DNA of 64,000 nt from an uncultured cyanobacterium (GTDB taxonomy: Bacteria > Cyanobacteriota > Cyanobacteriia > PCC-6307 > Cyanobiaceae), in contig CAVXWZ010000001.1 in the NCBI GenBank assembly GCA_963765575.1, positions 365,784 through 429,783 on the forward strand. The letters are read 5' to 3'. Of this stretch, positions 24,746 through 52,696 are shown one piece after another (position 1 is the stretch's first letter; every line of letters starts with the position of its first letter). The notes under the pieces are model-generated. The model saw only the letters and a list, made by a program, of their open reading frames with translations, was not told where the DNA came from and did not search any database. The position numbers were made by a program, and so were the translations under genes.

Positions 24746-24748
24746 GAG

Positions 24749-30548: not shown

Positions 30549-30586
30549 TCTAGTCTTGGTATCGACCGTCTTGGAAGGCCAGAGCG

Positions 30587-30847
30587 ATGCGCGCCAAGCT
30601 CTTCCGCAACGGCCGCAGCCAGGCGGTGCGCCTGCCGGCTGCCTTTCGCTTCGAGGGAACGGAAGTGGAGATCGAGCGCGACCCGGAAACCGGCGCCGTG
30701 GTGCTGACGCCGGTGCGGCCATCGGCCCGTGCCTTGCTGGAGCTCAGGGATGCGTTGCTGCAGGAGCCTGGCTTCCGGGCCGAACTGGATGCGTTGTTCG
30801 AGGGGTTGCACGACACCCGTCCTGCCGAACCGGTGGACTTCCCCTGA
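30587..30847 (+). CDS. vapB: VapB antitoxin (AbrB fold)
   Basis: AKLFRNGRSQAVRLP. Confidence 0.92.
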   Translation: MRAKLFRNGRSQAVRLPAAFRFEGTEVEIERDPETGAVVLTPVRPSARALLELRDALLQEPGFRAELDALFEGLHDTRPAEPVDFP

Positions 30848-31257
30848 TGGCTGCGGGGAACGAGAGGTTGATGCTGGACACCAACGCCATGAGCGCCTTT
30901 CTCAAACGACGCTCGCCACGACTGGATGCCTGGGTGCGTGAGCAACGTTGTTGCCTGTCCGCCATTGTGGTGGCCGAGATCCGCTACGGGCTGGAGAAGC
31001 TGCCGCCCACTTCGCGGATGCAGACGCGGTTACAAGAGCTGGCGGAGGCCACCCTCGAGACCCTGGAGATCCTGCCCTGGTCGGAAGCGTGCACGAGGAT
31101 CTACGGCCGGCTGCGCGCCGATCTCGAACGCCATGGCAAGCCTCTGGCGGTGATGGATCTGCTGATCGCCAGCCATGCCCTCAGCGAAGGCTGCGCCCTG
31201 GTGACGGCCGATCAGGCCTTCGCCAACGTGGCCGAACTCCACCTGGAGGCCTGGTGA
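30847..31257 (+). CDS. vapC: VapC PIN toxin
   Basis: MLDTNAMS, EIRYG, DLLIASHA, LVTAD; TGATG coupling at both ends. Confidence 0.92.
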   Translation: MAAGNERLMLDTNAMSAFLKRRSPRLDAWVREQRCCLSAIVVAEIRYGLEKLPPTSRMQTRLQELAEATLETLEILPWSEACTRIYGRLRADLERHGKPLAVMDLLIASHALSEGCALVTADQAFANVAELHLEAW

Positions 31258-34355: not shown

Positions 34356-35928
34356 GACTCGATCGTCTAACTATCCCAAGTTATCGAAACCTTCAGTCCT
34401 TTACGCTCGATTTTGATGAGTGCCAGGCGACGACGGTTTTGATCGGGCGAAACGGCTCGGGTAAATCTAATCTATTCGAAGCGATTGTGAGATCTTCCGA
34501 GAGCTTGAATCTGGTGGTCCGCCACCATTCGCCTACATGCTTGAGTATTCATGTCGTGATCATAAGATCAGGATTGACGCTGATCCTGGACGGGCAAACA
34601 AACGTCTCGCTATTTCTGTAGACGGCACGGGATGACTCAGTCAGCGTTTAAGCAAGGTCTCCAGATTACTGCCAACTACGTCTTCGCGTATTATTCGGGC
34701 TGGAGTAGCCGTTTAGAGCGCCACTTCGATCGACCAACCCGCAAACACTATACCGCCATCCTGAATGCTCGCCACAAGCAGCTTCCCCTACGAAGGATGT
34801 TTTTCTGCCGCAAGGAGTACAGTCAACTTGTCCTTCTGGCCTTCTTTCTTGAGAAGACGGCGGCGGCGCGTGATCTGCTTGAGAAGTATCTGGGAATCAA
34901 GGGTTTCGACTCAGCTCTTTTCGTGCTAAAGACCCCATGGTGGCGTGGAAGCGGGGCTCCAAAGAAAATTCAACTCGAAGAGGGGGATGCCCGATTCTGG
35001 TACGCGCGAGGTGCATTTAAGGACTTTCTTGATCGTCTTTGGGAATGTTCGCTAGCGCCAATCCGCAATAGCGAGACCGTGGACCGCGATGTCCGCAGGC
35101 AAGGTGAAGCAACCGAAAGGCTCTACTTGTTCGTCAAGAATGAGGACGGATCTTGGAGGGGCTTAAGCAAGGAGAATCTGATTCAAAGGATCTTTTCGGC
35201 TATCTAGAGAGCCTCTTCCTCTGTGACCTGATAGACGAAGTCCGGGTAACAGTCGAAAGAACTGATGGTACGCGTGTGAAGTTCACGCAGATGAGCGAAG
35301 GCGAGCAGCAGCTTCTCACTGTCCTCGGCCTCCTTCTATTTACGCAAAATGATGAGTCGCTGTACCTGCTCGATGAGCCCGACACACACTAAACCCAGTT
35401 TGGACTTATGACTTTCTCAAGCTCCTCCAGGACAACATTCGGGCCGATAAGGGTCAGTTGCTCGTGGCAACTCACAACCCGCTGATGATTGGCAATCTGC
35501 GTAAGAACCAAGTGCGCATTCTTTCCGTTCAAAACGAGATCGTCGTTTCGCGGGAACCCGAAGATGATCCGCTTGGGATTGGGGTTGAGGGTCTCCTTAA
35601 GTCGGAACTGTATGGATTCGCTCAACCTCGCGCCTGAGATTCTGAACAGACTGGATCGCCACTACTTTCTTCTTGGAAAAGAGAGCCTTCTGACAGTGAG
35701 CAAGACGAGCTGAGAGAGCTCGCTGCAGAGCTTAATGAGCTTGGATAGTTCGCGTTCTACACCCAAACCCGTACTTTGAAAGCTTCGCTGGTGCTCTGGC
35801 ACGCCGATGTCCCACACGATGAGACCGTTATCACTAAGGCGGAGATCCAAGCGCAGGTTGAGGTGGCGAATGAGGTGTTAACTGAGTTAATCGAGGAAGA
35901 GAGGTCTCCCGAGAAGATTAAGGCATGA
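34352..35928 (+). CDS. ABC-type (AAA_21) ATPase associated with the restriction system (frameshifted)
   Basis: GRNGSGKS Walker A, MSEGEQQ signature, LLDEPDTH Walker B, ATHNP switch; lower GC. Confidence 0.85.
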
Positions 35929-36737
35929 GGCACATCCCGCTCCACGACAACTGCCCAGATCCCGAGTGGTGTGAACGGGCAGCCGACTCTTCTCGATCAG
36001 CTTAAGGCTGCACCTGATATTGCGGCGCGTCATGAGCTTATTGATGGCAACAGCATCTCTTTGGCGCGAGCTAAAGGAATGGCTGCTTGCACTCTCCCAT
36101 GGAAAGTGCTGGTTTTCTGAAGCGAAGGATTGTTTCAGCTACTGGGATGTGGAGCACTTATCGCCCGAAGAAGAGCGCGAGGAATGAGCGTGGCTACTTC
36201 TGGCGAAGGTTACTGGTGGCTAGCATTTGACTGGCACAACTATCGTATCTGCGGGAATGTCGGCAATCGAAAGAAAGGTGCATATTTCCCATTGCGTGAC
36301 GGCTGTCCCCGTGTTGGGCCACTTGGTGACCTCCGGTACGAACAGCCACTGCTGCTTGATCCAGCTGATGAAGACGATCCCAATCTGCTCTTTTCAATCT
36401 CGAGGGGGAGGCGATACCTGCGCCACATGTAACGATGCATGGGAGCGGGACCGAGTCATATATTCTGTAGAGATATAGGCTGGATTATCCACCACTTTTG
36501 ACAGGCGAAAGTTGGTCTGGGCGAGTGCTGGAGCCAGGTCCAACATATCTTGCTGAGTTGGCGCTATATCAAGCTGATCCTACCAACGCGATCGCAAAAG
36601 AATCTTTGAAGAATGCAGCGAGGCACATTAGAGACATGATAAGAGCTGACAAGGAGTTTTCGTCTGTTGCTGAGAGCATGCATTCTGAGCAGCGGAGAAG
36701 AGAGGGTTACTTCTTTATTGCAGAATTAATCCAATAG
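35925..36737 (+). CDS. HNH endonuclease (PtuB-like; frameshifted)
   Basis: GKCWFSE...DVEH...GYWWLAFDWHNYRICGNVGNRKKG..FPL...LLLDP; ATGA overlap with the ATPase. Confidence 0.8.
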
Positions 36738-37263
36738 TCTCCCGCCGAGGGCCTTGATTTCTCCTTCGCGCACAATCTTGTGGGTAACACAATTCGTTCT
36801 TATAGGAGCCTCCAAATCGAGCCGGTTAGGCCGACGATGAGTCAGGCAGGCCTCATCCGTGGGGTTTGAATTGTTCGAGGTGCCCTTGTATCTATCGGCA
36901 ATTGAATTCGCTTTCTCTCTCAGGGATTAACCCCTACCCATCTGGAGCGGATCCTGGTACCCTAGTCCGCAGCGCGCAGGCCCTCGCAAAGTGGACGGCG
37001 CAAGGCTGCTGGCAACTGGGAGCCGTTCGCTGTTGAGGCCACCCCTGAGGCGCCGGCTTCCTGATCACCCTGCCTTATCAGAACAGGTCGCGGATGCCGG
37101 GCGTCTTTCCTGGTGCAGCTCCTCTCCGACGCAGACCCCACCTATAGGTGCAGTGCTGTTGATGGATTCCTGGCGGTGGCTACGAAGGTTCAGTACTGCA
37201 AAGGCGCCTTGGCCTTTCCCAGTCCTACGGTGGCGTCAAAACTTGGCGTATGAAGTCTTCAGC

Positions 37264-38215
37264 GTGAAGCGTCATCGGCTGGTTCTGGAGGGGGGCGATG
37301 CTGAGGCGCTTCGCATCAGCGACGACCAACTCGCGGAGCTCCTGGCGGCTCTCAAGGAGGGGGCGCGCCTCGCGTTGCGCTTTCAGGCGGAGGGCATCAG
37401 CAGTCAAACGGGCCCCAGACCCCGCTGGCTGGAGGCCTGCACCAGCCATGTGATCACAGGCCTGAGCGCCGGCTCTGCGGTGCTGGAGCTTGAGGCGCCC
37501 ACCCTGGAGGAGGCCGCCCCTGACGTCTTCCCGTCGACAGGCCAGTTCAGCCTGTTGGAGCAGGAGGAGCCCCCCGTTCCACAGGGCAGCACAGCCCTGG
37601 AGCTGTTCGCGGTGGTGCTCCGGCAGATTCAGCAGGGGGATGGCTCCACCCTGAAGGCCGATCGGGCACTCCTGGAGGGTTGCCTGCGCTTTGCCCGCGT
37701 GCCCGGTTGGATCCTTCAGCGGCATCAGCCTTGGGCCCATCGACGGCGAGGGCCCGCCCGTGACCCTCAAGGCCTCAGACATTCCCCTCATCGAGGCGTT
37801 GGTGCAGCAGACGCCCCTCCCCCAGGCCATCCGCTTCACCGCCAAGCTCGACACCATCTCCTCCACCAGGCCGTCGGTCACCCTGCTGAGCGACGACGGC
37901 GAGAAGATCCTGGCCAGGCTTCCGGGCAGCGTCACCACCGAGGAGTTGCGGACCCTGTTCGGGCAACGCGTGATGGTGGCAGGCATTGGCCACTACCGCC
38001 CATCGGGACGCGTGCAACAGATTGCCATCAGTCAGATCCACCTGGCTGCGGCATCTGATGAGCTATTCAGCGAAACTCCCCGGGCGTGGGGCTCAACACC
38101 TCTGTTTGCGCCCGCCACTCAGGAGCCTGGATCCGGTGTCGCGAACTTCTTCGGCACCTGGCCAGGGGAAGAGTCTGACGACGAACTCACGGCTGCCCTT
38201 TCCGCCATTCGATGA
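37264..38215 (+). CDS. Hypothetical protein of about 315 aa, coupled to a PIN gene (frameshift near 37705)
   Basis: Two ORFs join; C terminus FFGTWPGEESDDELTAALSAIR; ATGA overlap with the PIN gene. Confidence 0.7.
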
Positions 38216-38680
38216 CGGCGGCCACAAGCCCCGGGAGGCCCTTCCTGCTCGACACCAGCGTGATTCTCCATCTGGTGCGGGGGAATGCTCTCGGGCAGCA
38301 GATACGAGACACCTATGACTTGCTTCACTGCCAGCCTCGGCCTTTGGTCTGTGTGGTGAGCCTGGCCGAGGCGCGGGTGCTGGCGGAAACCAATGGCTGG
38401 GGAGACGCCAAACGCAATGCCCTGGACACAGCCTTCCGCTCCCTGACGGTGGTGAACATCAACCATCCCACAGTGATCGAGGCCTATGTGAAACTCGATC
38501 TTCATGCCCGTTCCCATCCGCTCGGGGCACGCAGGATGGGCAAAAACGATCTGTGGATTGCTGCGACTGCCGTTGCCGCTGATGCTTTCTTGCTGACGAC
38601 GGACAAAGACTTTGAATGCCTGATCCCATCCCATGTTCAAGGACAGGTGATTTCTGCACAGTTGGCGTTTGGAGTTCACA
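38212..38680 (+). CDS. PIN-domain (VapC-like) nuclease; 3' end uncertain
   Basis: LLDTSVILH, SLAE, GKNDLWIAATA, LLTTDKDF. Confidence 0.85.
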
Positions 38681-38728
38681 TCCTGCCGATACGCCGGTGG
38701 CACTGGCAAGAGCAGCCGCTCCAGCCCC

Positions 38729-39099
38729 TTGGCCACCCGCGCCGTCTTCTCCTTCACCGGCTTTCCCGGCGTCCCGGAGCGCCACCTCTACCTCCACCAC
38801 GACGGCTACCCCACCGGCGCCGCCTGGCGCTTTGCGGCGGCCCTGCGCGAAACCGCTGACGCCTCCAGCTTCCTCGCCGCCTTTCTGAGCACCCAGCACC
38901 AAGCGGAACCCTGGCCAGCCCAGATCAGGCCGCCGATGCCGAGTACCGCTACCGGGTGCAGCTGCTCCCCGGCACCGATCCCCAGCTTAAGGTGCAGTGC
39001 TGGCGTCGGATTCCGGGCGGCGACAGCTGGATTCCCCGCTGCGGGCCCATGCCGCTGGCGGCCTTCATCCAGCGCTTCCTGCCCGGTGATCCGCTTTGA
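38729..39099 (+). CDS. Hypothetical protein with an HxDGYP motif (frameshifted)
   Basis: MATRAVF...LYLHHDGYPTG...AEYRYRV. Confidence 0.6.
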
Positions 39100-39315
39100 C
39101 CCGGCCAAGCGCCTGCGAACCCTGGAGCAGCGTGGCCTGGATTTTCTCGATGCTGAGAGCGTCTTCGCCGGCCCCACGATCCAGGTCCCTGATCGAAGGC
39201 GAGACTATGGTGAAGTGAGAATTGTCTGTGTTGGATTGCGGCATCAGGCACATCATCTCCATGCGAAAGGCCAATGAGCGAGAGCAACGTCGTTTTCTCC
39301 CCCACCTCTCCTGAA
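39086..39315 (+). pseudogene. BrnT-family toxin with internal deletion
   Basis: FDPAKR..RGLDFLDA..RRDYGEVR, then HIISMRKANERE in another frame. Confidence 0.75.
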
Positions 39316-39480
39316 GGTAAGATCCATTCTGATCTTCAGCGCGTGGATGCCCATGACATCCAACCCGAAGAGTATGAGGAGATCCCCGAAATCACGGAGG
39401 AAGATCTCACGCACGCCGTGATCAAGCGACCTGGTCAGCCTGATCAAGCTTTTCTGGAAGCACCAACCCAAGAATCTTGA
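39274..39480 (+). pseudogene. BrnA-like antitoxin, N-terminal part only
   Basis: SDLQRVDAHDIQPEEYEEIPEITEE; no C-terminal RHH segment. Confidence 0.6.
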
Positions 39481-39491
39481 CCCATTGGCCC

Positions 39492-40445
39492 TCAGCGCCT
39501 CAGCGCTTCCCGGTGGGCACTTAGGAACATCTCCTGCTCCCGACTGAACGGCCGAATCAGGTTCGCCCCCTCGATTCCCCAGCAGCGCAAGGCCTCCCGG
39601 GCCGCCTCGTGTTGCCAGATCAGCTGTCCGCCCCAATCGAAGCTGATCCAGTGGCGATCAAACAGTTTGTCCACATGGGGGGAGAGCAGCAGGCCATTGG
39701 CGCCGCTCAGCCGTTCGCTGTTGTCGCAGGATCGCCAGGGCTTGATGTGGCTGGCCACCAGGAACTCCTGCCGCGCCAGCCCCGTGACCCGGCAGGCCGG
39801 CTCCAGCTCCGACACCCGATGGCGAAACAAGCCCTGCCCCAGCCGCGCTTTGGTGAGTGCATTGCGCTCGGTGCTGCTGGGCACCTCCCGCAGTCGCTGC
39901 ATGTCATCGAGCAACGCGGCGGTGTACTCCCCCTCTTCCGCCAGCACCACCAGGTGCACTCGCACCGCCGGATCGGCGTGCTCCTCGATCAGCTGGAGCA
40001 ACAGCAGCCCCAGACTTTCGCTCAGCCCGGCCAGGTACACCCCCTGGTTGCCCCGGCCTGTGCTGGTGCTGATCGGGCTGTGGCGCTCCGGCAGCAGCGG
40101 TTGCAGCAACGCAAAGAACGTCTGCGGCACCAGCGCCTTGCGCAGCGGCTGCCAGTTCACCCGCACCAGCCAGCCCTCCTGGCTCCAGTTCTCCCCTGCT
40201 GAGCCGAACTCCGGCGGCTTGGGTGCCGTGATCGCCGCCGTTTCCACCAGGCCGAGCTGGCTGATCCGCCCCTTGGCATAGCTGAACACCACATCCCCCC
40301 GCTGGCAGCGGCTGAGGTTGTCGTAGGTCACGTTGCGGGCGCCGTTGGCATTCGTCTTCGGCGACCAGATGTAGCCGCCGTCGGTCTCCTGCCGGTACGT
40401 CTGCTTGTGGTTCACCCACCAGTAGGAGGGCACGGATTCAGACAA
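39492..40445 (-). CDS. HNH endonuclease with an N-terminal EVE/PUA-like domain
   Basis: YWWVNHKQTY..GGYIWSPK..GDVVFSY; RLGQGLFR..CRVTG..ASHIKPW..NGLLL..DKLFD. Confidence 0.88.
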   Translation of the reverse strand: MSESVPSYWWVNHKQTYRQETDGGYIWSPKTNANGARNVTYDNLSRCQRGDVVFSYAKGRISQLGLVETAAITAPKPPEFGSAGENWSQEGWLVRVNWQPLRKALVPQTFFALLQPLLPERHSPISTSTGRGNQGVYLAGLSESLGLLLLQLIEEHADPAVRVHLVVLAEEGEYTAALLDDMQRLREVPSSTERNALTKARLGQGLFRHRVSELEPACRVTGLARQEFLVASHIKPWRSCDNSERLSGANGLLLSPHVDKLFDRHWISFDWGGQLIWQHEAAREALRCWGIEGANLIRPFSREQEMFLSAHREALRR

Positions 40446-40512
40446 GGCTGGCCTCGTTGTAGCCGTGGTGGGGCGGTGTGTCCTCAGGCGGGCCGTCTCG
40501 ATGGAATCACCA

Positions 40513-40833
40513 CCTCACCCCGTTGCTCGCGGAATCCGTCCAGCCGCTGGCGGCACAGCTGCAGCAGCGCGTCGCGCTCGGTGTCGCTCAGCTCCTCCGC
40601 GCCGATCAGGCTGTAGAGCCCATCGCCATAGCGGGTGATGCCGTTGCCGGTGAGCACGCGGCCCACCATCCGTTTCCCCAGGATCCGCCGGGCGATGTCC
40701 TGCGCCGGGGCCGGGCTGCGGCGGCCCAGCAGTTCCATGAGCATCAGGGGTTGATCGATGGGGCTCATGCGCATCCGCTGGGCGATGGTGTGCCGGAGGC
40801 GCTCGTAGGTAGTGGAGGGGTTTGGGGGCATGG
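40513..40833 (-). repeat. Array repeat copy A (5' fragment of a dead gene, MPPNPSTTYERLRHTIAQRMRMS...)
   Basis: Nearly identical to 42473-42795; related to copies C-F. Confidence 0.9.
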
Positions 40834-40844
40834 GAGACCCCATC

Positions 40845-41237
40845 AGGGATCACGGTCAGAACCTGGCAGGATCAGTTCGTTCACACGACCAGCAGCGCTT
40901 TCACCTGTCGGTTGTAGTGCGTTCGATCCAGCCCCAGAGGGGTGGGATCAGCGTCATAGCGGAATTGCACGGCGTAAACGGTGAGCTGAGCCAGCGGCTC
41001 CAGATCTGCCGTGCTCTCACCGGCTGCGGCGAGAGCAGCAGCAGCCGACGCAGATCATGGGTGAGAGGCGCATCAACGTCCAGATGCAGCAGCCAGGCTT
41101 TCAAGCCTTCTCACGGCCTGCTGAAGCCAGAAGCCCCAGGCACCCTCCCGGAACACGGCGGGATCGCTGCTGGCCTCAGCCGTCTCCAGGTCGGCAGTGG
41201 CGATCTTCAGCACGCCTTCCGGCTCAGAGAGCACCAT
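40845..41237 (-). CDS. HEPN-domain toxin (frameshifted)
   Basis: ADLETA...GFWLQQAV/KALKAWL...THDLRRL...VQFRY. Confidence 0.8.
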
Positions 41238-41571
41238 CGAGCAAGCGCCCCTCCCGATAGGCCCTGCCGATCACGTGACTGCGCCAGTGGCGGCGCTCCA
41301 CGCACTCCCGCTGCGAATAGAGCAGAAGATCGAGGGACACATCCGCCTGAGCCAGCTCGTCCCAGAGCTGGTTGAGCACCTCGAAGCGGTGGTGGCCCTC
41401 AAGCCAGGCATCCGGTGCGGTGATCAGCAGGTCGATGTCCGATTCCGGCCCCGCTGTGCCACGCGCCCGGGAGCCGAACAAGCGCACTTCGGCGCCTGGG
41501 ATCCTTTGCCGGATCACAGCCGCCATCCGCTGGAGGCGCTGCTCGATCGGTGGCGCGGCGGCGCTGGTCAT
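41224..41571 (-). CDS. Minimal nucleotidyltransferase (MNT) antitoxin
   Basis: LFGSRARGTAGPESDIDLL. Confidence 0.9.
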   Translation of the reverse strand: MTSAAAPPIEQRLQRMAAVIRQRIPGAEVRLFGSRARGTAGPESDIDLLITAPDAWLEGHHRFEVLNQLWDELAQADVSLDLLLYSQRECVERRHWRSHVIGRAYREGRLLDGAL

Positions 41572-41623
41572 GCCGCCATTCTGGGCAGGGTCTTATCGGG
41601 CTGGTAGCGGGGGTGGGGAAACC

Positions 41624-41670
41624 GGGCTGGGCCGTCATGGGGGTGGCACTGGAGGAGGAGAAGAATTGGC
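41624..41670 (-). repeat. Array repeat, upstream motif only (copy G)
   Basis: GGCTGGGccgtcatGGGGGTGGCACTG resembles GGCTGGGGTGTGACGGGGGTGGCACTGA of copies C, D and F. Confidence 0.6.
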
Positions 41671-41747
41671 GTCATGACATGCCCTTCCCCGGACCCCGCC
41701 TCACTCCAGGAAGCGTACCTACGATGGATTCCTTGCCTGGGGGTGTG

Positions 41748-41972
41748 ATGGCGTTTGCGCCCATGTCTGACCTTCTCCAACTCCCGCAGAGCGAGCGGCT
41801 GGCCCTGGCGATCGCCCTGTGGGACAGCCTCGATGACCAGGCCCGGGATGGGGCGTTGCCGGTCGACCCTGCCCTCTGCGCGGAGCTCGACCGGCGCTGG
41901 GCCACCCATCTCGACAACCCGGACGAGGCTCTGGCCTGGGATGAGGTTCGGAGCCAGCTCGACCTCGGCTGA
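41748..41972 (+). CDS. Addiction-module antitoxin component
   Basis: LLQLPQSERLALAIALWDSL...AELDRR...WDEVR. Confidence 0.85.
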   Translation: MAFAPMSDLLQLPQSERLALAIALWDSLDDQARDGALPVDPALCAELDRRWATHLDNPDEALAWDEVRSQLDLG

Positions 41973-41974
41973 CC

Positions 41975-42265
41975 ATGCGCCCAGTTCGCTTCCTGCCGGA
42001 TGCGGTGCAGGATCTTCTGGCGACTCAGCGCTGGTATGGCATGCGGGAGCCTGCGTTGGCTCGTGACTTTGCTGAAGTCTGCGCTGCTGCGGTGGAGCGC
42101 ATCCGCTGCGATCCCCGATCCTTCCCCTTGGTTCACGGGCAGATCCGCAGGCTCGTCATGAAGCGTTTTCCCTATGCCGTCTACTTCCGGGAGCAGGGCG
42201 ATGAAATCCTGGTGATCGCCCTTCACGGCCGCCAGGATCCCAAGCTTTGGCAGCAGCGCACCTGA
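41975..42265 (+). CDS. RelE/ParE-family toxin
   Basis: WY...IRRLVMKRFPYAVYF...VIALHGRQDP. Confidence 0.88.
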   Translation: MRPVRFLPDAVQDLLATQRWYGMREPALARDFAEVCAAAVERIRCDPRSFPLVHGQIRRLVMKRFPYAVYFREQGDEILVIALHGRQDPKLWQQRT

Positions 42266-42380
42266 AACGTCCGTTGGACAGACCCCATTCATGGGCCTGA
42301 TGTGGAAACGTTCCTACGTTGATTCGCCTGGAGACAGCTGAGTGGGGTTCCCGATGGCTGGGCAACTGCCTGGCGGCCCG

Positions 42381-42795
42381 TCACTCGCAGCGGCCCCGTG
42401 CCCTTGTGAGCACCCGGTACTTCACCGAACCGCTGATCGGGCTGCGGTGGCGGGAGCGATGGGCAAACACCTCCTCACCCCGTTGCTCGCGGAACCCGTC
42501 CAGCCGCTGGCGGCACAGCTGCAGCAGCGCGTCGCGCTCGCTGTCGCTCAGCTCCTCCGCGCCGATCAGGCTGGTAGAGCCCATCGCCATAGCGGGTGAT
42601 GCCGTTGCCGGTGAGCACGCGGCCCACCATCCGTTTCCCAGGATCCGCCGGGCGATGTCCTGCGCCGGGGCCTGGGCTGCGGCCGGCCCAGCAGTTCCAG
42701 GAGCATCAGCGGTTGGTCGATGTGGCTCATGCGCATCCGCTTGGCGATGTACTGCCGGAGGCGCTTGTAGGTGGGGGAGGGGTGCGGGGGCATGG
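42381..42795 (-). repeat. Array repeat copy B (longest; runs to ...KYRVLTRARGRCE, the start of an HNH-like domain)
   Basis: Direct alignment with copies A and F. Confidence 0.9.
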
Positions 42796-43004
42796 AGCGA
42801 TGGTGGCGGCTGCCGGGCGCCTGGGCCAGGTTTGGTTTCGGGCGGCCCGTCAGGCGAACCCCCTGCTGGGATCCCTTCTGGTGCGGGCGTCGTGGCGGCT
42901 GCAGCCAACCCGGCTCCAGCTGTGGCTGTGCCGCCCCATCCCTCTGCCCAGACAGAGACAGCATCCCTGCCCCCACTGCCAGACTGGTGCCGCTGGAGGG
43001 CGTC

Positions 43005-43215
43005 ATGCAGGAAATCCTTTTCGTGGTCGAGGAAGCGGAGGATGGCTCCTTCCGGGCCAGCGCAGCTGCCGCCGCGATCCACACCGAGGCCGACACCCTT
43101 GAGGAGCTCCACCGGGAGATCCGCGACGCCGTCGTCTGCCACTGTCGATCCCGGCAAGGCGTTGCCGACTCCGTGATCTCGCACATCCATCCGATGAGGC
43201 AGATGAACTGTCATG
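43005..43215 (+). CDS. HicB-like antitoxin (degraded 3' end)
   Basis: MQEILFVVEEAEDGSFRA...IHTEADTLEELHREIRDAVVCH. Confidence 0.7.
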
Positions 43216-43420
43216 GCCCTGTGGATTTCACGGACGTCAACGGCCAGTCTTGGCCGACTATTGTCAGGAGCTAGTGGTGACTCGCAGACATCCAGTCACA
43301 TGCGGTTGACCCAGATATCGCACGAAGTCGCATTCAGATTCCGCCGACAGCCTCTGAGGCGTTGTCACCTTGCGGCAATCATTAAGGATTGAGCCGGCCA
43401 GTGGGCTGTCGCTCGGAGCT
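43213..43420 (+). pseudogene. HicA-like toxin (many indels)
   Basis: Fragments across frames: DVNGQSL, VVTR, SHMRLT, QIP..PL...LAAIIKD. Confidence 0.5.
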
Positions 43421-43486
43421 GCAGCCTGGTACTTTGAGGCCCCCGGGCGGCTAATCCCCTATGGCCGCTCCAGAGTCATGCGGATT

Positions 43487-43604
43487 TGATGATGGGGCTT
43501 CCATGCCGCATGCGCCGGCGATCTGCCGGAGGCGCTCGTAAGTGGGGGAGGGGTGCGGGGGGCATGGGGGCATCCTGGCTGGGGTGTGACGGGGGTGGCA
43601 CTGA
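43487..43604 (-). repeat. Array repeat copy C
   Basis: CCGGAGGCGCTCGTAAGTGGGGGAGGGG...GGCATCCTGGCTGGGGTGTGACGGGGGTGGCACTGA. Confidence 0.88.
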
Positions 43605-43698
43605 CCAGGGAGAAGCTTTGGCGTCCTGTCATGCCCTTCCCCGGACCCTGCTCCACGCCAGGAAGCGTGCCTGCGATGGATTCCTTGCCTGGGGTGTG

Positions 43699-43792
43699 AT
43701 GGCGTTTGCGCCGATGTCCGACCCGCTCCAACTCCACCAGAGCGAGCGGCTGGCCCTGGCGATCGCCCTGGGGGGGACAGCCTCGATGACCA
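43699..43792 (+). pseudogene. Truncated copy of the addiction-module antitoxin
   Basis: About 43590-43792 aligns with about 41640-41840, including the upstream region. Confidence 0.8.
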
Positions 43793-43862
43793 TGCCCCCG
43801 GTATCCAGGATGGTGGAAATGCCTTGGCCTGGTGCCAGAATGAATGTCGCGTCGATGTCCTG

Positions 43863-44039
43863 ATGCCCAAGACCGACCCAGAGCTTCAGCGGCTGCGTCA
43901 GCAGGCCAGTTCACTGTCGCTGGGTTCGCGCATCATCCGTGCGGTGGCCAGTTCCACGGCCATCGAAACGGGTCAGTCGGTTGCTGAAATCGAACGTGAA
44001 CTCAGGAATCGACAATCCTCCCAGTCAACACCTGCCTGA
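43863..44039 (+). CDS. Putative Fic antitoxin (58 aa)
   Basis: AVASSTAIETGQ resembles the (S/T)xxxE(G/N) inhibitory helix; convergent with fic. Confidence 0.6.
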   Translation: MPKTDPELQRLRQQASSLSLGSRIIRAVASSTAIETGQSVAEIERELRNRQSSQSTPA

Positions 44040-44632
44040 ACAGATCCTCCATTGGGGTGACATTCAGCACGGCCCCCGCCCGGATCGCGGCGAAGTACAG
44101 GTCCCGCTGACGATCCCATTCTGAATAGTCGAGCGGACCAATCCCCGCTTGGCACGCCATCACATCAGCCAGCAGTCGGGCGATTCGACCATTGCCTTCG
44201 CGGAACGGATGGATGAGCACGAATTCAACATGCACCTCAGCAAGTCCCCTGATCAGTGCACCCATCGAGTCTGGGTTGAACGGAGTCAGCCGACACCAGA
44301 TACTCCGATTCGAATGACTTGAGCAGATCTGGCAAAAGATGAGCACTCGCGAAAGCAAAGCCTTGTTTGCTCAGATTGAACGTCCGAACCTTTCCTGCCC
44401 AGGAATAGACAGACCCCAGCCATTGCCGATGCCAGCCGATCAAATCTGAAATCCTCAGGCGGTTGGTTGGAGCCCCATTCCCGATGATCGTCTGATAGAG
44501 ATCGAGAAGCAGGTCCCGCTCCACGCCCTCCATCACCGCCGGATCCTTGATGCCCAGGCGATTGCTCAGAACCAGATCATTCGATCCTGGCTCACACTCC
44601 GCGGCAGAGCCGACGACCCTGTAGCGACTCAT
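44002..44632 (-). CDS. Fic-domain protein (frameshift near 44290)
   Basis: HPFREGNGRIAR canonical Fic motif; VLSNRLGIKD, YSWAGKVR. Confidence 0.9.
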
Positions 44633-44640
44633 CGGTTCTC

Positions 44641-44826
44641 TCCCAGGATCTGCTGAAGCTCACTGGCCCCGCAGCGCTCACAGCGGCTGGCAGTTCCATG
44701 AGCATCAGCTCGATTGGTCTCATGCGCATCCGCTCGGCGATGGTCTGCCGGAGGCGCTCGTAGGTGGGGGAACGGGCCGGGGGCATGGGGGCATCCTGGC
44801 TGGGGTGTGACGGGGGTGGCACTGAT
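44641..44826 (-). repeat. Array repeat copy D
   Basis: Encodes MPPARSPTYERLRQTIAERMRM and carries the full upstream motif. Confidence 0.88.
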
Positions 44827-44976
44827 GGAGGAGGAGCGATGGCCCCCCTTCCTCCATTGCCCCCACCCACCCGATGGGACCGACGCCATGGCCTCCCTGC
44901 TGATCCGGCCCAAGGGCACGGAGGTAGACACTGTCTACCCATGAAGCTAGGCTGCAAGGAGGTTTGCGGCACGGCC

Positions 44977-45250
44977 GTGGCTGCCACTCCTCGCCTCAGC
45001 TGGAACCTGCGGGTCTCGCCCGACGATCAGGCCCTGATCGATCGCGCCGTCCGTGCCTCCGGGCTCACCCGAACCGACTTCGTTCTGCAGGCGGCCCGCA
45101 CCGCCGCCCGTGAGCTGCTGGTCCAGCAGAGCTGGCAGTCCGTGTCGTCCGAACAGTTCGACCAGCTTCTCCGCCTGCTGGATGCTCCCCCAAGCCCCAC
45201 GTGACCGCCTGCAACGCACCATGACCGCGCCGAGGCCCTGGCAACGCTGA
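44977..45250 (+). CDS. DUF1778 (TacA/AtaR-like) antitoxin (one indel)
   Basis: NLRVSPDDQALIDRAVRASGLTRTDFVLQAA...LLDAP...PW. Confidence 0.85.
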
Positions 45251-45750
45251 TGGAGCTGCTGGCGCCGCAGCCCCTGGCCAGCCACCACAGCACAGTGGGC
45301 TTCGACTGCGGCGACACCAGCCTGGATCACTGGCTCCGGCAGCGTGCCCTGCCGAATCAGCAGAGCGGTGCGACACGCACGTTTGTGGTCTGCGATGGCG
45401 ACGGCACCGTCAAGGCCTATGTGGCTCTGGCCTCCGGTGCCGTGGCGGTGGCCTCAGCACCCGGGAGCTTTCGTCGCAACATGCCCGATCCCATTCCGGT
45501 TGTGCTGCTGGCACGGCTGGCGGTCTGCCGCAGTGTGCAAGGTCGCGGCATCGCGCGTGCCCTGCTTGCCGATGCGTTCGAGCGGGTCCTTCAGGCCAGC
45601 GAACGGATCGGCGTTCGCGGCATCGTGGTCCACGCTGCTTCCGCGGACGCCCGCAACTTCTATCTGCACATGGGTTTCGATCCCTCACCCATCGATCCCG
45701 ACACCCTCCTGATCCGTCTCTCGGATGTGGCGGCAACCCTGGGGTTGTGA
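45250..45750 (+). CDS. GNAT toxin (TacT/AtaT-like)
   Basis: FDCGDTSLDHWL, RRNMPDPIPVVLLARLAV, VHA...FY...GF; TGATG coupling. Confidence 0.92.
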   Translation: MELLAPQPLASHHSTVGFDCGDTSLDHWLRQRALPNQQSGATRTFVVCDGDGTVKAYVALASGAVAVASAPGSFRRNMPDPIPVVLLARLAVCRSVQGRGIARALLADAFERVLQASERIGVRGIVVHAASADARNFYLHMGFDPSPIDPDTLLIRLSDVAATLGL

Positions 45751-45784
45751 GCGGCCCTGGATGGAGGCTTCGTAGCCGTAACCC

Positions 45785-46020
45785 CCTCGCCGCTGATCAG
45801 CGAGGTTCCGCTGTTCCTGTTCCGGGTGATGACCTGCGCCGGGGCCGGGCTGGTTGTTGCCTGGCAGATCCGTGGCCCAGCAGTTCCATGAGCATCAGCG
45901 ATTGATCGATGGGGCTCATGCGCATCCGCTCTGCGATGGACTGCCGGAGGCGTTCGTAGGTGGGGGAGGGGTGTGGGGGCATGGGGGAATCCTGGCGGGG
46001 TGAGACGGGGGTGGAACTGA
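45785..46020 (-). repeat. Array repeat copy E
   Basis: Encodes MPPHPSPTYERLRQSIAERMRMSPIDQSLMLMELLG; variant upstream motif. Confidence 0.88.
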
Positions 46021-46135
46021 CAAAGGAGAAGCCTCGCTGCCGTGGCGCTCACGCGCTCTCCTTCACCCCACAAGGGCCTGGCGCCCAGAGCCCATCAGCG
46101 GGTCAGCCCCGTGGGCACGTAGCACGCGCGCTAAC

Positions 46136-46420
46136 ATGGAAGGGTCGTTTCGGCTTGAGTACTACAACGCTCGTGTTCGCGAGGACATCGAGGACTAGGC
46201 CTCCTGCGATCTCCTGAAAGCGCGATGCATCACTCTCGGCGGCGGCCTGTTCGAACTCAGGCCCAGAGGCCGTTCCGGCATCGGCCGGGCCTTCTACTGC
46301 TTCTGCGGTGGCCGGGTGATCACCGTGCTCCATGCCTTCGTGAAGAAGACCCAGAAAACAGCCAGGCGTGAGCTCCTCATCGCTCGCGAACGCCTCAGGA
46401 ACGTCAAACGCTATGCCTGA
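46136..46420 (+). pseudogene. RelE/HigB (Gp49-like) toxin, disrupted
   Basis: GGGLFELRPRGRSGIGRAFYCF...VLHAFVKKTQKT; N-terminal half has a stop and a deletion. Confidence 0.75.
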
Positions 46421-46748
46421 CATCCCCTATCAACCGGTCATCCGCGATCGCGGTGCCGAACGCGCCCGGCTCGATCAGGTGCCGGGCTACAGCGAAGCGC
46501 GGCAGGAGGCCGCCGTGGAATTCCGTCTGCTCCGGCAGCTCCTGGAGGCACGCCAGCGGGCCGGTCTCACCCAGGAGGAGGTCGCCGTGCGGATGGGCAC
46601 CACGCGCAGCGCCATCAGTCGGCTCGAGGGATCCCGCAAGCACATACCCGCACTGTCCACTCTCCGCCGCTACGCCGATGTGCTCGGCTGCGATGTGGAA
46701 ATCCAGCTGGTGCCTCGAACCCCTGATGAAGCTTCACCGCCTTGGTGA
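46413..46748 (+). CDS. XRE-family HTH antitoxin
   Basis: ARQRAGLTQEEVAVRMGTTRSAISRLE...STLRRYA. Confidence 0.88.
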   Translation: MPDIPYQPVIRDRGAERARLDQVPGYSEARQEAAVEFRLLRQLLEARQRAGLTQEEVAVRMGTTRSAISRLEGSRKHIPALSTLRRYADVLGCDVEIQLVPRTPDEASPPW

Positions 46749-46761
46749 GCGGCGGTGGAGG

Positions 46762-47095
46762 GCATCGAGGCGCTGGCGGCACAGCTGCAGCAGCACGTCG
46801 CGCCCCTCGCCGTAGCGGGTGATGCCGTTGCCGGTGAGCACGCGGCCCACCATCCGTTTCCCAGGATCCGCCGGGCGATGTCCTGCGCCGGGGCCGGGCT
46901 GGCTCCTGCCCCAGCAGTTCCAACCGCTGCGCGGAAGCCTTCGGCTACAGCATCAGCGGTTGATCGATGGGGCTCATGCGCATGTGCTCGGCGATGTAGG
47001 CGCGGAGGCGCTCCGGGGGAGGGAGGCAGAAGCATCGGGGCATCCTGGCTGGGGTGTGACGGGGAGGGCACTTGTAGGCAGAAGCCTTGCTGCCG
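46762..47095 (-). repeat. Array repeat copy F
   Basis: Aligns with copies A and B and carries the upstream motif CATCCTGGCTGGGGTGTGACGGGG. Confidence 0.88.
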
Positions 47096-47170
47096 TCTCC
47101 TCGATCCATCCCATCGCGTCCTCCGTCGTGGAGCGTGCCTACCCTGTGTTCTCAGCCGTCCGCCGTGGCG

Positions 47171-47389
47171 ATGACACCCCTGTCTGACCTCCTTCAGCTG
47201 CCCCAGAGCGAGCGCCTGGCCCTGGCGATCGCCCTCTGGGACAGCGTGGATGACGAGGCCCGCGATGGGGCGCTGCCGCTCGATCCCGACCTCTGCGCTG
47301 AGCTGGATCGGAGCTGGACGGCCCATCTCAGCAACCCTGACGCAGCTCTGGGCTGGGATGAGGTGCGCAGCCAGCTCGGCATCGAATGA
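47171..47389 (+). CDS. Addiction-module antitoxin (paralog of 41748-41972)
   Basis: LSDLLQLPQSERLALAIALWDSVDD. Confidence 0.85.
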   Translation: MTPLSDLLQLPQSERLALAIALWDSVDDEARDGALPLDPDLCAELDRSWTAHLSNPDAALGWDEVRSQLGIE

Positions 47390-47560
47390 CGCTCCCTGCA
47401 GTGCGCTTCCTGCCTGAGGCGCTGGAGGAGCTCCTGGAAACCCAGCACTGGTACGGAACGCGTGAGCCGGCGTTGGCCAACGACTTTGCCCAAACCGTTG
47501 CTGCTGCGGTGGAGCGCATTCGCCACAGTCCCCAATCCTTCCCCTTGATTCACGGCCGTT
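47386..47560 (+). pseudogene. Truncated RelE/ParE toxin (paralog of 41975-42265)
   Basis: VRFLPEA...WYGTREPALA...SFPLIHG, after which similarity stops. Confidence 0.8.
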
Positions 47561-47589
47561 CCTCTTGCCTGAACGGGGACGTGCCCGGA

Positions 47590-47921
47590 ATTGGTCGCGC
47601 TTCCTCCTGAACATGCGGGGGTGCTGCTCGAAGATCCTCAGGTACAGCCAGGGGCTCACCAAACAGCACTCACGTACTGACGAGATGATGGTTGACGCCG
47701 ACCTGCGCAATCTGGAGGTGCTGGGTGAAGCGGCGAAACAGAATCCGCCGGCGCGGTTCGTGAGCGCCCCCCCAGGTGCCCTGGCGACGCATGTCTGGCC
47801 GCCGCGATGCTGGGTACATGCCTACTTCGGCCTGGAAGAAGACACCATCTCGCAGATTGTTTGCAAGAGCATTCCAGCCCTGACTGACCAGTTGGACCAA
47901 GTGGTTGAGGCTGAGCTCTGA
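47590..47921 (+). pseudogene. DUF86/HepT-like ribonuclease remnant without its MNT partner
   Basis: DADLRNLEVLGEAAK...VHAYFGL...IPAL. Confidence 0.7.
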
Positions 47922-48262: not shown

Positions 48263-48787
48263 ATGACCGTTCTGGGGAGAGAGGCGATCCTGCAGGCGAT
48301 CCAGCAGGGCTCCATCACGGTCACCCCGTTCGATCCCGAGCGGCTGGGTCCCGCCTCGCTCGACCTCACCCTCGCCCCCACCTTTCGCGTGTTCCGCAAG
48401 GTGCACGAGGTGATCGAAGTGCGTGAGCACACCGATTACAGGCAGCTCACCGAGAAGATCGAGGTGCCCGAGGGCCAGCACATCCTGATCATGCCGGGCG
48501 AAACGGTGCTCGGCATCACCCAGGAGCGGCTGCGCCTGGGCCCCGGGCTGTGCGGCTGGCTGGAGGGTCGCAGCCGTTTCGCGCGGCTGGGCCTGATGGT
48601 GCACATCAGCGCCCCCTTCATGGGGCCGGGGATCGACAGTCAGCAGGTGCTGGAGATGAGCAATTTCGGCCCCGCTCCCCTGGCTGTGCATCCCGGCACC
48701 GCGATCTGCCAGTTCGTGTTCCAGAAGCTGCAGGGCAGCGAGAGCTACGCCGGACTCTTCGCTGGCCAGACGGAAGACTCCTTTTGA
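48263..48787 (+). CDS. dcd: dCTP deaminase
   Basis: PASLDLTL, LEGRSRFARLGL, LEMSN, ICQ. Confidence 0.9.
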   Translation: MTVLGREAILQAIQQGSITVTPFDPERLGPASLDLTLAPTFRVFRKVHEVIEVREHTDYRQLTEKIEVPEGQHILIMPGETVLGITQERLRLGPGLCGWLEGRSRFARLGLMVHISAPFMGPGIDSQQVLEMSNFGPAPLAVHPGTAICQFVFQKLQGSESYAGLFAGQTEDSF

Positions 48788-49235: not shown

Positions 49236-50770
49236 ATGGCGACCATGCAGAGCAGACAACCGCCAACCACGCCCTGCCACCGATCGCCGGCTCTGAAGCG
49301 GAGATCCTTGCGCTTGTTCACGGATACCGGTCCGGTGTCTGCTGCCGCACACCAATCTCAACCTGGAGCAGATCCGCTCAGGCTTTGCCTGCGCGCTCCA
49401 CATGCACCAGCCCACGATTCCAGCCGGGGCGGAGGGGGAACTCATTTCCCATCTTCAATACATGCTGGAGCATCCAGGGAGGGCGACAACCACAACGCCG
49501 AACCCTTTGCCGATTGCTATAAGCGCCTCGGCGTCATCATCCCCCAGCTGATTGAAGAGGGCTGCAACCCCCGGATCATGCTGGATTATTCGGGCAATCT
49601 GCTCTGGGGCTTTGAGCAGATGGGCCGCCACGACATTCTCGATGCCCTCCAGACGGCTCGCCTGCGATCCCAGCCTCCAACCCCATGTGGAATGGCTCGG
49701 CACCTTCTGGGGCCATGCGGTGGCGCCCTCCACCCCCATCCCCGACCTGAAGCTGCACATCCTGGCCTGGCAGCATCAGTTCGCGGCCCTGTTCGGAAGG
49801 GAGGCCCTGCAACGGGTGAAGGGATTTTCACCGCCGGAGATGCACCTGCCCAACCACCCCGACACCCTCTATGCCTTGGTGAAGGCCCTCAGGGAGTGTG
49901 GCTACCGCTGGCTGCTGGTGCAGGAACACAGCGTGGAAAACCTCGATGGCTCCAGCCTGCGCCAGGAGCAGAAATATCTCCCCAATAAGCTCGTGGCGCG
50001 CAGCTCCAGCGGCGAAACGGCCACGATCACGGCGCTGATCAAAACCCAGGGCTCCGACACCAAGCTGGTGGGCCAGATGCAGCCCTGTTACGAAGCCCTG
50101 GGGCTCGGCAGGCAAGTCGCTGGGAGCCACCACGGTGCCTTCGCTCGTTTCCCAGATTGCCGACGGGGAAAATGGTGGCGTGATGATGAATGAGTTCCCG
50201 CCGGCCTATCAGCCAGGCCCATCACAAGATCGCCTCCCAGGGCAGTGATCCCGGCACGGTGGCGATCAACGGCACGGAATATCTGGAGTTGCTGGAAGCC
50301 GCCGGGGTGCAGCCAGCGGATTTCCCGCAGATTCAGGCGGTGCACCAGCACAAACTCTGGGACCGGCTCGGCAGCCCCCGAGTCACCCGAGCCACCCAGA
50401 AGCCACCGAGGCGGCCATCGCCGAGCTGCAGGCCAGCGATCCCTCCTTCTCCATGGCCGGCGCCTCCTGGACCAACGACCTCAGCTGGGTGGAGGGCTAC
50501 GCCAACGTGCTGGAGCCGATGAACAGCCTCAGTGCCCGGTTTCACCAGGTGTTCGACCCCCTGGTGGCCGAGGACCCCGGGGTGACCCAGACCCCGCCCT
50601 ATCAGCAGGCCCTGCTCCACCTGCTGCTGCTGGAAACCAGTTGCTTCCGCTACTGGGGACAGGGCACCTGGACCGAGTACGCCCGCGAGATCCACCGGCG
50701 CGGCGAAGCCGCGATCGCAGCCGTGCCCGGCACTGGCTTGTCCAGGGCCATGGAGCCGGGCGCGTCCTGA
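49236..50770 (+). CDS. Glycoside hydrolase family 57 protein (multiple frameshifts)
   Basis: ALHMHQP, LDYSG, GFSPPEMH, DGENGG, ETSCFRYWG across frames. Confidence 0.82.
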
Positions 50771-50814
50771 CCGCTGAAGGCAGGATGGGGGCGTTGTCTC
50801 TGCGTGTCGGCTTG

Positions 50815-52383
50815 ATGCTGCTGTCCGGACCCGCCCTCACGCTGCCCGACCGCCTCGATGCGCTTCTGGAGGTGGGGCTGGCCCGGGATCCTGACGGGTC
50901 CAGCCCTGCAGGATCTCCAGACAAGCCTCAGCTGGAGGCAGCTGGCAGAGCGGGTGGAACGACTGACTGGCCGCCTACGGCACCATGCCGCTGAAGGCGG
51001 GCGACCGGGTGGCGTCCTTGATGCCCAACCGGGTCGAGCTGGTGATCCACTACCTCGCTTGTCTGCGGCTGGGCCTGGTGATCACACCACTCAACTACCG
51101 CTATGTGGTGCCCGAGATCGACCATGCCCTGCGGGTGAGCGGGGCGGTGCTGCTGCTGTATCACCAGGAGCGCCTGGCTGATCTGGAAGCCACGGAGCTG
51201 GCCGGATCCCTGCCTCTGGGGCTGATCCGCTTCGAGGATGGGCAGAGAGCGGCAGCGGGCTGAAGGCGAGAGGTGCCTTGAGACTCTGCTGACCACGCCT
51301 GCCACCGGCGAGGAACTGTCCTGCCTGCCAGCGGAGGCCCCCGCGATCATTTATTTCACCTCCGGCAGCACTGCCAAGCCCAAGGGGGTGACCCACAGCC
51401 GCGCCAGCTATGGAGCGACGCTCGCCAGCCTGGCCCAGGCGATGGAATACGCGCCGGGGGAGCGTCTGATGGTGGGCTGCTCGCTGGCCCATGCGGCGGC
51501 CTCGATGTACGGACTGGCAGGCCTCTCGCTGGGGGTCACCCTGGTGGTGGCGACCGAGAGTGACAACCATGCCCTTGAGGCGCTCCTGCATCACCGCCAG
51601 CCGAATCTGCTGCTGATGTTGCCGGCACCGCTGATGGGCCTGATGCATGACCGGGATCTGAATCCGGCCGATTTCGCCGACGTGCGCCTGTGCCTCTCCG
51701 GTGGTGACAAGGTTCCCCTGCAGCTGCAGCGGGATTTCAAGACCGCCGTGGGTTTTTCGATCGACGAATGCTTCGGCATGAGTGAATGCGGTGTGGCCAC
51801 GATGTCTCCGCCTTCCGGCGAGAACCGGGTCGGCTCGGTGGGTCGGGTCTGCCCCGGTTTCGAGTGCTCCATCCGCAACGAGGAGGGCCGCGAACTGCCG
51901 GTGGGAGCAGAAGGAAGGTTGTGGCTGCGTTCGGCGTCGGTGATGACGGGCTACTGGGACAATCCCACCGCCACAGCCGAGACGATTGTGGACGGCTGGC
52001 TCGACACCGGTGACGAGATGCGCCTGGACGCGGACGGCTACCTGTGGTTCTGCGGCCGACGCAAACAGATCATCGTTCACGATGCCTCCAACATCTGTCC
52101 GCAGGACGTGGAGGATGCCCTCTGCGAACACCCTGCTGTGGAACTGGCCGGAGCGATCGGCATCCATGACGTCATGCACGGGGAGAACGTGCGGGCCTAC
52201 ATCACCCTCCAGCGGGGGGCCCAGGCTCCGATGGCCGCCGAGCTGATTCGCTTTGCCCGCGAACGCATCGGTTACAAGGCACCGGAGGAGATTGTGGTGC
52301 TGGCGGAGATGCCCCTCAACCCGAGCGGCAAGGTGGACCGCGTCGCGCTCAAAGCGATGGCGGCTGAAGCTCCCAGGAGCTGA
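50815..52383 (+). CDS. AMP-dependent acyl-CoA synthetase/ligase (frameshifted)
   Basis: YFTSGSTAKPKG, FGMSE, GWLDTGD, GKVDR. Confidence 0.88.
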
Positions 52384-52389
52384 AAACTG

Positions 52390-52560
52390 GCGAAAGCCAT
52401 CAAAGACTGTCTTGCATTCGTAGAAGCTCTCGACTCAGCCCCAACCCTGATCGACCATTCCCTGGGAGGCGTCGTCGCATAGCAGCTGGCGGCCATCAGC
52501 TTGGCCGAAGCGATTGTGCTTTTCATTGGCAGTGTCCATTGGAGCATCGTCCCGATGACC
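52390..52560 (+). pseudogene. Alpha/beta-hydrolase fragment
   Basis: PTLIDHSLGGVVA*QLAA, a degraded GHSxGG nucleophile elbow with an in-frame stop. Confidence 0.4.
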
Positions 52561-52696
52561 ATGACACCCACCGATGACGCGGCAGTACAGAAGCAGTACA
52601 GACGCGCAGATCGCCACGGTTAAGAACAGATCCTGCAGCCGCCGGGGCCCATCGCTATGGTCAGCCCCTCCGGTGTGTCGCAGTGAGGACGGCCAG

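Follow-up and report, generated by a model that had tools for sequence, protein, structure and literature searches.

We describe an array of toxin-antitoxin (TA) cassettes in a 64,000-nucleotide stretch of DNA (the window) from an uncultured cyanobacterium of the family Cyanobiaceae (assembly GCA_963765575.1, contig CAVXWZ010000001.1, positions 365,784 to 429,783 of the forward strand; genome G000 below, with coordinates counted from the first letter of the window unless a contig or locus is named). TA operons alternate there with co-oriented, decayed 5′ pieces of a gene for a 333-amino-acid (aa) N-domain-HNH-HIT protein, and comparison with relatives establishes a real, clade-wide, polar and shuffled TA cassette array on pseudogene pieces in Cyanobium-type picocyanobacteria. 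TA cassettes flanked by HNH-HIT pieces probably enter, leave and swap by homologous recombination, with no dedicated recombinase.

A polar, shuffled array across picocyanobacteria

We mapped 41 loci, comprising 38 array loci from 33 genomes and 3 controls. Reference open reading frames (ORFs) containing repeat sequence had placed the labels dcd, MNT and c65 over repeats, and these artefacts were filtered out. Gene matches were co-oriented in 41/41 loci, and the units have a common layout: a gene piece ending at an internal point x, a TA operon, then a leader motif with the gene start. Leaving out 8 of 179 intervals that fell outside 300-2600 bp, the remaining 171 (median 787 bp) hold a recognised TA gene in 155 cases, or 166 if candidate pairs are included, with ~20 TA classes across the mapped arrays; the modules are two-gene operons, divergent from the leader in 143/166 and co-oriented with it in 23. 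Polarity shows in the 20 arrays whose two flanks could both be examined: the most complete gene copy stands last in 13 of them, against an expectation of 3.3, and the completeness gradient is positive in 19/20. Repeat matches occur in 89/301 genomes of the family and 17/42 genera, many as multi-copy clusters, and in 22/31 other genomes of the same genus; none occur in 24 genomes from other families of the class.

Cassette order is scrambled between genomes. Of 129 neighbour pairs 111 are distinct, and the next neighbour of full-length common cassettes is the same in 3/36 cross-genome pairs. An earlier note on this DNA had proposed that a pseudogene piece serves as a reusable anchor for shuffling TA cassettes, and had named as support a number and order of cassettes that vary, the breakpoints falling within the repeat; the varied order over 33 genomes and the joints inside repeats by which near-identical strains differ, including one within repeats E and F described below, support the proposal. 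Cassettes of G000 are 96.5-97.7% DNA-identical to those of G016, G119, G162 and G186, whose comM genes share 73-76% DNA identity with that of G000. The TacAT cassette alone is 97.1% identical over 998 nt to that of G119, which belongs to another genus, and one cassette common to G000 and G012 is 99.6% identical over 1187 nt, with comM 74% identical in protein. Such identities show that units pass between genera.

A unit also inherits both of its junctions along with its TA type. The left junction agrees within 6 nt in 107/686 same-class cross-genome pairs, which are not independent of one another, 61 of the 107 being cross-genus, against a shuffled expectation of 16.2+/-4.0 (2000 shuffles, maximum 32). 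Truncation points recurrent across genera include gene position 343 before XRE/RelE, 769 before PIN, and 571 and 807 before DUF5615; because these recur at the same base, units must be reused after birth.

The array in the window

The earlier note had reported six repeat copies, A to F, encoding decaying pieces of one N terminus, together with a motif-only copy, G. All seven (7/7) are present, essentially where they had been placed, on the minus strand and ~0.8-1.2 kb apart from start to start, with self-BLAST E-values among A-F of 1e-139 to 1e-9. All are co-oriented, decayed 5′ pieces of the 333-aa N-domain-HNH-HIT gene: copy A in translation is a peptide of 119 aa that shares 81% identity with the first third of HNH+HIT proteins of 333 aa named from Cyanobium and Synechococcus, the ground on which the host is called a Cyanobium-type picocyanobacterium. 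From the 3′ to the 5′ side of the array, the features are:

39492..40445, minus strand: HNH_2 endonuclease gene (PF13391), the usual 3′-side neighbour of the array and beside the last repeat in many relatives
40488..40840, minus: repeat A, terminal copy, gene nt 1 to ~387 with in-frame loss of ~aa 54-65
40890..41571, minus: MNT and HEPN pair, co-oriented with the repeat; MNT (41224-41571) intact, HEPN broken
41601..41673, minus: repeat G, leader motif only (nhmmer 43.6 bits)
41748..42265, plus: intact addiction-module antitoxin (PF09720) with an intact ParE, the pair pointing away from leader G
42372..42818, minus: repeat B, gene nt 1 to ~459, frameshifted, without leader motif
42987..43274, plus: 5′ piece of a HicB-like antitoxin; its first 52 aa match relatives (96%), the remainder is degraded
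43464..43624, minus: repeat C, leader motif and gene nt 1 to ~110, decayed
43699-43770, plus: truncated addiction antitoxin, within cargo interval 43691..44632
43866-44039, plus: 57-aa ORF in the same interval, convergent with Fic
44002-44632, minus: Fic, with a frameshift at 44295
44634..44845, minus: repeat D, leader motif with gene nt 1-111, followed in the list of matches by a short fragment at around nt 440-490
44938..45750, plus: TacA (DUF1778), frameshifted near 45185 (near its end), and TacT (GNAT), intact
45822..46041, minus: repeat E, leader motif and gene nt 1-144
46175..46748, plus: RelE/Gp49-like toxin, broken, and XRE antitoxin, intact
46735..47094, minus: repeat F, leader and gene nt 28 to ~343, decayed
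47171..47921, plus: second addiction antitoxin, intact, with the 5′ half of ParE (cut at 47558) and a HepT remnant
48263..48787, plus: dcd (dCTP deaminase, PF22769), a frequent 5′-side neighbour of the array

The HNH nuclease noted beyond A is the PF13391 gene, and the TA cargo is largely as first listed, except that HicA was not detected in the window at E<=1e-4, a HepT remnant had been overlooked, and most toxins in the array are broken. The Fic gene is there, in frameshifted form, but the ORF proposed as its antitoxin has no match in Pfam or NCBIfam. In the HicB region, joints as compared with relatives lie at 43143/43285 and 43312/43421.

Two junctions tie window units to those of relatives. 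The junction of repeat E (143) also precedes TacAT in G119, and that of repeat F (343) also precedes XRE/RelE in G175, G186 and G274. Contigs of other public runs show the array in altered states. In run X5, which represents a close relative, a joint from 45972 to 47026, inside E and F, skips exactly the RelE/XRE unit, at a depth of ~1 against ~10. Within A, the sequence of runs X1 and X5 passes to another allele at 40616. Both runs keep sequence that the window genome lost by deletions at 43800 and 47558; at the latter the HepT remnant (47565-47921) is fused to the truncated ParE, and one repeat and an MNT gene were likely deleted there. In the X1 and X5 contigs, HepT is preceded by a longer ParE and by a repeat, together with other sequence. 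Runs X1, X5 and X6 lack the extra base in Fic and carry a longer antitoxin/ParE piece.

How cassettes may move

Homologous recombination between HNH-HIT pieces, our preferred explanation, would work as follows. In a rare birth step, an illegitimate joint would connect a TA lying upstream of the gene with an internal point x in another copy, after which both flanks would match the target gene. A popped-out circle (by a single crossover) or a transformed linear fragment (by two crossovers) would then bring in the TA, with a truncated 5′ copy left behind upstream. The longest copy would be the best target, so that growth would be biased to the 3′ end while older units would drift upstream and decay. 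Loss by pop-out would be countered by post-segregational killing until the toxin breaks, and redundant TA types would be lost or not kept. In standard recombination geometry, two target-homologous arms in permuted order insert their cargo and duplicate the 5′ part of the gene; the permuted arms of each unit lead one to expect an insertion pattern that is the pattern seen. We infer a route through RecA and natural transformation.

The presence of the leader motif follows the upstream TA (p=0.0002) and not the downstream TA (p=0.24), as inherited junctions would have it. Besides the X5 joint in E/F, two observations speak for crossovers within the gene piece. An allele without nt 1-116 tracks the upstream TA (p=0.009) and not the downstream one (p=0.44). 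Identity of the last 60 nt of the repeat is highest with a common downstream TA (0.849 vs 0.797) and that of the first 60 nt with a common upstream TA (0.796 vs 0.773). The effects of linkage are small, however, and they come from pairs that are not independent.

Beyond that caveat, several observations weigh against movement by homologous recombination. The deletion of aa54-65, seen in 27 genomes, tracks neither side (p=0.49, 0.09). High-identity tracts have no clean breakpoints, because TA genes are more conserved than repeats, and they contain indels; the tract common to G000 and G012 runs roughly from motif to motif. Junction positions are numerous in certain TA classes (HepT >15), a sign of repeated births or of deletions at a later time. 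Exact matches between adjacent repeats have a median of 20 nt and reach at least 25 nt in 36% of the 171, so that pop-out is probably slow and old units are probably near locked. With most toxins in the window broken, addiction no longer holds most units there. The longest copy in the window is B rather than the terminal A, and the mapped loci were selected for several repeat matches. The competence genes comEC and dprA are present in 5/5 genomes but also in 10/14 control genomes, giving weak support for the transformation route. The data are contigs and not raw reads, and they reveal no circle, no event of recombination and no dependence on RecA.

It is unlikely, though the least so of the alternatives, that each unit arose locally by one-ended homology-facilitated illegitimate recombination (HFIR), the repeats being scars and not reusable arms. 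One conserved and one variable junction per unit is the signature of HFIR (PMC5361080), several classes do have many different truncation points, and growth at the 3′ end would be compatible. The recurrence of truncation points across genera (107 vs 16 expected) and the clean repeat-to-repeat absence in X5 argue the other way, as does the rarity of HFIR, several orders of magnitude below that of homologous recombination (PMC5361080). HFIR is therefore weakened as the sole route and is likely to be the birth step.

A still smaller chance attaches to a site-specific recombinase acting in trans (IntI or another) at the leader motif, which would make the array an integron with atypical sites. The absence of intI reported in the earlier note holds for the window, which contains neither of the two tyrosine-recombinase matches of this genome, but not for the genome as a whole, where IntI is encoded on another contig (C2:324905). 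IntI exceeds the cut-off in 98/301 family genomes and 21/26 of the genus, in clades that largely coincide with those of the arrays; intI adjoins an array in 1/38 array loci (L047, in G018), with fragments near arrays in G013 and G023. Further in favour, the leader motif is rare and sharply bounded, and the G000/G012 tract fits such boundaries. Our attC detector was custom-built on the attC consensus (a RYYYAAC...GTTRRRY hairpin). It finds canonical attC beside intI in 3/5 intI loci (G013, G002 and G023; downstream of intI at L053:5590-7330, L054:4690-5790 and L055:45-830), so true integrons are present in those relatives, and none in the stretch scanned beside the intI of this genome. At unit boundaries, however, it finds none in four arrays, in agreement with the earlier note; its matches there fall inside HNH, Fic or the coding part of the repeat. 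The 72/169 units that lack the motif shuffle too; the nt 1-116 deletion follows the upstream TA and not a motif-to-motif unit; the motif also precedes core comM; and G138, a draft genome that is 99% complete and has 8 repeat matches, has only one weak tyrosine-recombinase match. The left ends of units are cassette-specific, from 0 to 1002, with no fixed crossover site common to all. A direct-repeat search around intI in G000, G012 and G013 gave no link to the array repeat, except for the leader motif at comM, and an Rfam scan of five loci gave no match. The lack of attC and the units without a leader together favour homologous pop-in, pop-out and swapping over an integrase.

We consider it very improbable that whole blocks of TA plus gene were tandemly duplicated within lineages and then diverged and decayed under vertical inheritance. 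Two near-full gene copies each in G186, G205 and G222, and repeats slightly more alike within than between genomes, would suit this explanation, yet neighbouring units carry different TA families, same-class duplicates are fewer than expected (14 vs 33), order is scrambled, and cassettes ~97% identical across genera whose comM is 73-76% identical largely refute it.

Misassembly of strain haplotypes, which the earlier note had named as a possible refutation and for which the similar flanks of two arrays (GH57 81%, HNH 92% identical) and the clustering of frameshifts in the island might speak, is refuted for the array as such by contigs of four independent public runs that bridge the five junctions HNH-A, A-HEPN-MNT-G, antitoxin-ParE-B, Fic-D-TacA and TacT-E-RelE (88% likeness), and by arrays in six single-contig genomes (G002, G012, G013, G141, G159, G162). 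Single frameshifts are another matter. Compared with proteins of relatives, 32/36 are intact in this assembly and 4 are split, 3 of these in the island, and some frameshifts may be errors, namely that in Fic at 44295 and several GH57 insertions absent from other runs.

The leader motif

A profile of the leader gives 12 significant matches in the 2.7-Mb genome, all within its two arrays, and one weak match (E 0.17) at comM. Across arrays the motif is present in 97/169 units and absent from 72/169, the latter including common MNT-HepT, MNT-HEPN, HicAB, MazEF and BrnTA types. Otherwise it is almost confined to arrays, with two outside sites: 20-45 nt upstream of core comM, which is divergent from hinT (G000:C2:315790-315845; L051:790-846), and upstream of a further core gene, of 120-133 aa, between sdhB and gap (G000:C8:248982). 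The other comM loci examined also have it upstream, in full or in part (L057-L061, L063-L068 and L070-L072 in the motif set). The motif is a candidate promoter or regulator site, as its place before core comM suggests, and through it TA operons may be tied to a regulon of competence or repair. Genome G019 has no HNH-HIT gene, and there the motif stands before the gene of an SLFN helicase (L069).

Selection and upkeep of cassettes

The 179 modules were scored heuristically by gene length and stop codons: both genes are intact in 119, the antitoxin alone in 45, the toxin alone in 2 and neither gene in 13. Arrays hold 14 duplicates of a class already present, where 33+/-4 would be expected. These counts are compatible with toxins that are active and are escaped when they decay, and with the keeping of TA types that are not redundant; they suit addiction and a benefit such as phage defence alike.

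Relation to known systems

The earlier note knew of no such system. The locus itself is undescribed in the literature searched, which excluded supplements and subscription papers, but two kinds of array work similarly. Rhs/CDI (contact-dependent growth inhibition) orphan arrays are rows of toxin modules, each with a variable-length fragment of the parent gene, and near-identical modules stand at different positions between strains, for which recombination between fragments has been proposed (Poole et al. 2011, PMC3150448). There the fragments come from the toxin carrier itself, and downstream orphans are reloaded onto the carrier by fusion (PMC3150448), whereas here the parent is an unrelated HNH-HIT gene and not a secreted polymorphic toxin carrier, and the cargo consists of self-contained intracellular TA operons that lie upstream, mostly on the opposite strand, and are never fused. 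The immunity arrays of the Vibrio cholerae type VI secretion system (T6SS) likewise grow in a polar manner without an integrase, with birth proposed to occur by HFIR and spread by homologous recombination, and their authors also compare them to integrons (Kirchberger et al. 2017, PMC5361080). In that system the old effector is displaced, so that only immunity genes remain, and there is no repeated landing pad (PMC5361080); the present array retains both members of the TA pair, and every step adds a copy of the anchor.

Sedentary chromosomal integrons are likewise shuffled arrays that appear to have one end for insertion, and their TA cassettes bear promoters and kill when they are excised (Richard et al. 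2024, PMC13108822). The present array differs in having no attC, attI or linked intI, in spacers that are 50-1000-bp pseudogene pieces, and in cargo that is nearly all TA rather than TA in a minority (PMC13108822). Variable content and order are common to integrons or CALINs (clusters of attC sites lacking integron-integrases) and this array, but its cassettes are two-gene TA operons and not promoterless, co-oriented single genes. Integrative elements that restore their target gene leave tandem att remnants, duplicating one gene end per insertion; here, by contrast, the units are ~0.8 kb long, no integrase is present and fragment ends vary by cassette. The array thus falls outside the Rhs/CDI orphan, Vibrio T6SS and superintegron classes.

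As a wider and more tentative possibility, which we rate below recombination as such, the array may be a recombinase-free, self-templating analogue of the integron, in which scraps of a defence gene serve as an address system common to several picocyanobacterial genera. Any TA that had once gained two permuted arms would then be portable, part of a pool open to the whole community, inserted at one end of an array and retained through addiction; by way of the comM-like leader, TA expression may be coupled to the very programme of DNA uptake by which cassettes arrive. If true, ordered and polar cassette capture of the integron kind would arise from a pseudogene and homologous recombination alone, which would broaden a principle hitherto known from secreted toxins. 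TA genes abound in picocyanobacteria of estuaries and fresh water, with no account, in the accessible text, of how these accumulate (PMC12413379); the available portions of PMC5498466, PMC12413379 and 10.64898/2025.12.17.694815 report TA richness or island location and mention no repeat or array. The array would offer both a route and a place for this build-up, a single address through which ~20 TA classes cycle in different genera, and the polarity of its order may record the history of acquisition. Its slots also flag candidate TA pairs: DUF6883/DUF4926 (L037:11753-12376), a DUF2283 pair (L084:13601-14094) and, beside HicA, a weak DUF1902 match (L036:7344-7818), with DUF433/DUF5615 as a further pair. 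An ESM Atlas search with two unfamiliar ORFs gave matches only under 0.9, and one of the two, c66, was rejected as a shadow of reverse-strand DUF6883/DUF4926 genes.

The parent gene and the second array

The parent family is broad, with 4375 proteins at E<=1e-30, and an intact HNH-HIT gene occurs in 4/25 genomes of the genus; in genus g50, three genomes carry a single copy without an array. No array was found at 80 outgroup loci, the best 80 of 385, gathered with a query led by a distant homologue and nearly all from other phyla: 5 have a second protein match, and none has a series of 5′ pieces. No match to array TA proteins was found at 78 of the 80, a count that understates TAs there because the TA queries were picocyanobacterial. 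The parent N-domain has no sequence match in Pfam or PDB, and a winged helix (wH) was not confirmed; wH-HNH enzymes have been described (PMC11037411). An RNA-guided role of the parent was rejected, as IscB/Cas9 matches fell below the cut-off and comprised the HNH motif only. Two distant genomes have, upstream of their HNH-HIT gene, a sequence of 88-93 nt that recurs (L156:7870-9245, L161:518-7970), flanking the gene in L156 and occurring in three copies in L161; at a glance it is not attC-like.

A second array in the same genome, on contig C3 at 55.7-63.2 kb (L001:9700-17200), carries different TAs (MazEF, BrnTA, ParE, HicB, DUF433/DUF5615, VapBC), a near-complete, frameshifted HNH-HIT copy and an HNH gene 92% identical in DNA to that at 39492..40445. 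Contig C3 may represent either a second island or a strain binned together with this one.

Neighbouring genes and other observations

Arrays are flanked 5′ by dcd, GH57 and ATPase island genes and 3′ by HNH, restriction or SLFN genes; dcd is the flank also in G013, G023, G015, G009, G010 and G159. In L093 a DUF4011 Hhe/ProA-like anti-phage gene (below cut-off) directly follows the terminal copy. Beyond the array, window positions 21400-39500 form a defence island with GmrSD, type I restriction-modification pieces and further TA pairs (HigBA-like, MazE/PIN, PIN, and a broken BrnT/BrnA), and YhaV and MNT genes lie at 59-63 kb. In the region 49263-55500, frameshifts affect GH57, acyl-CoA synthetase and a gene with a cyclic nucleotide-binding (cNMP) domain; several single-base insertions within GH57 or beside it are missing from three or four other runs, and reflect decay or assembly error.

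A second repeated block, consisting of an HNH or SLFN-helicase piece, TacAT, and a leader with the HNH-HIT 3′ end, occurs at L032:2669-4757 and 14130-17650 and at L039:1-4320, and suggests that other island genes are also used as anchors. Insertion sequences of the IS481, IS21, IS3, ISAs1 and IS256 families lie inside or beside arrays (L032, L040, L087, L050).

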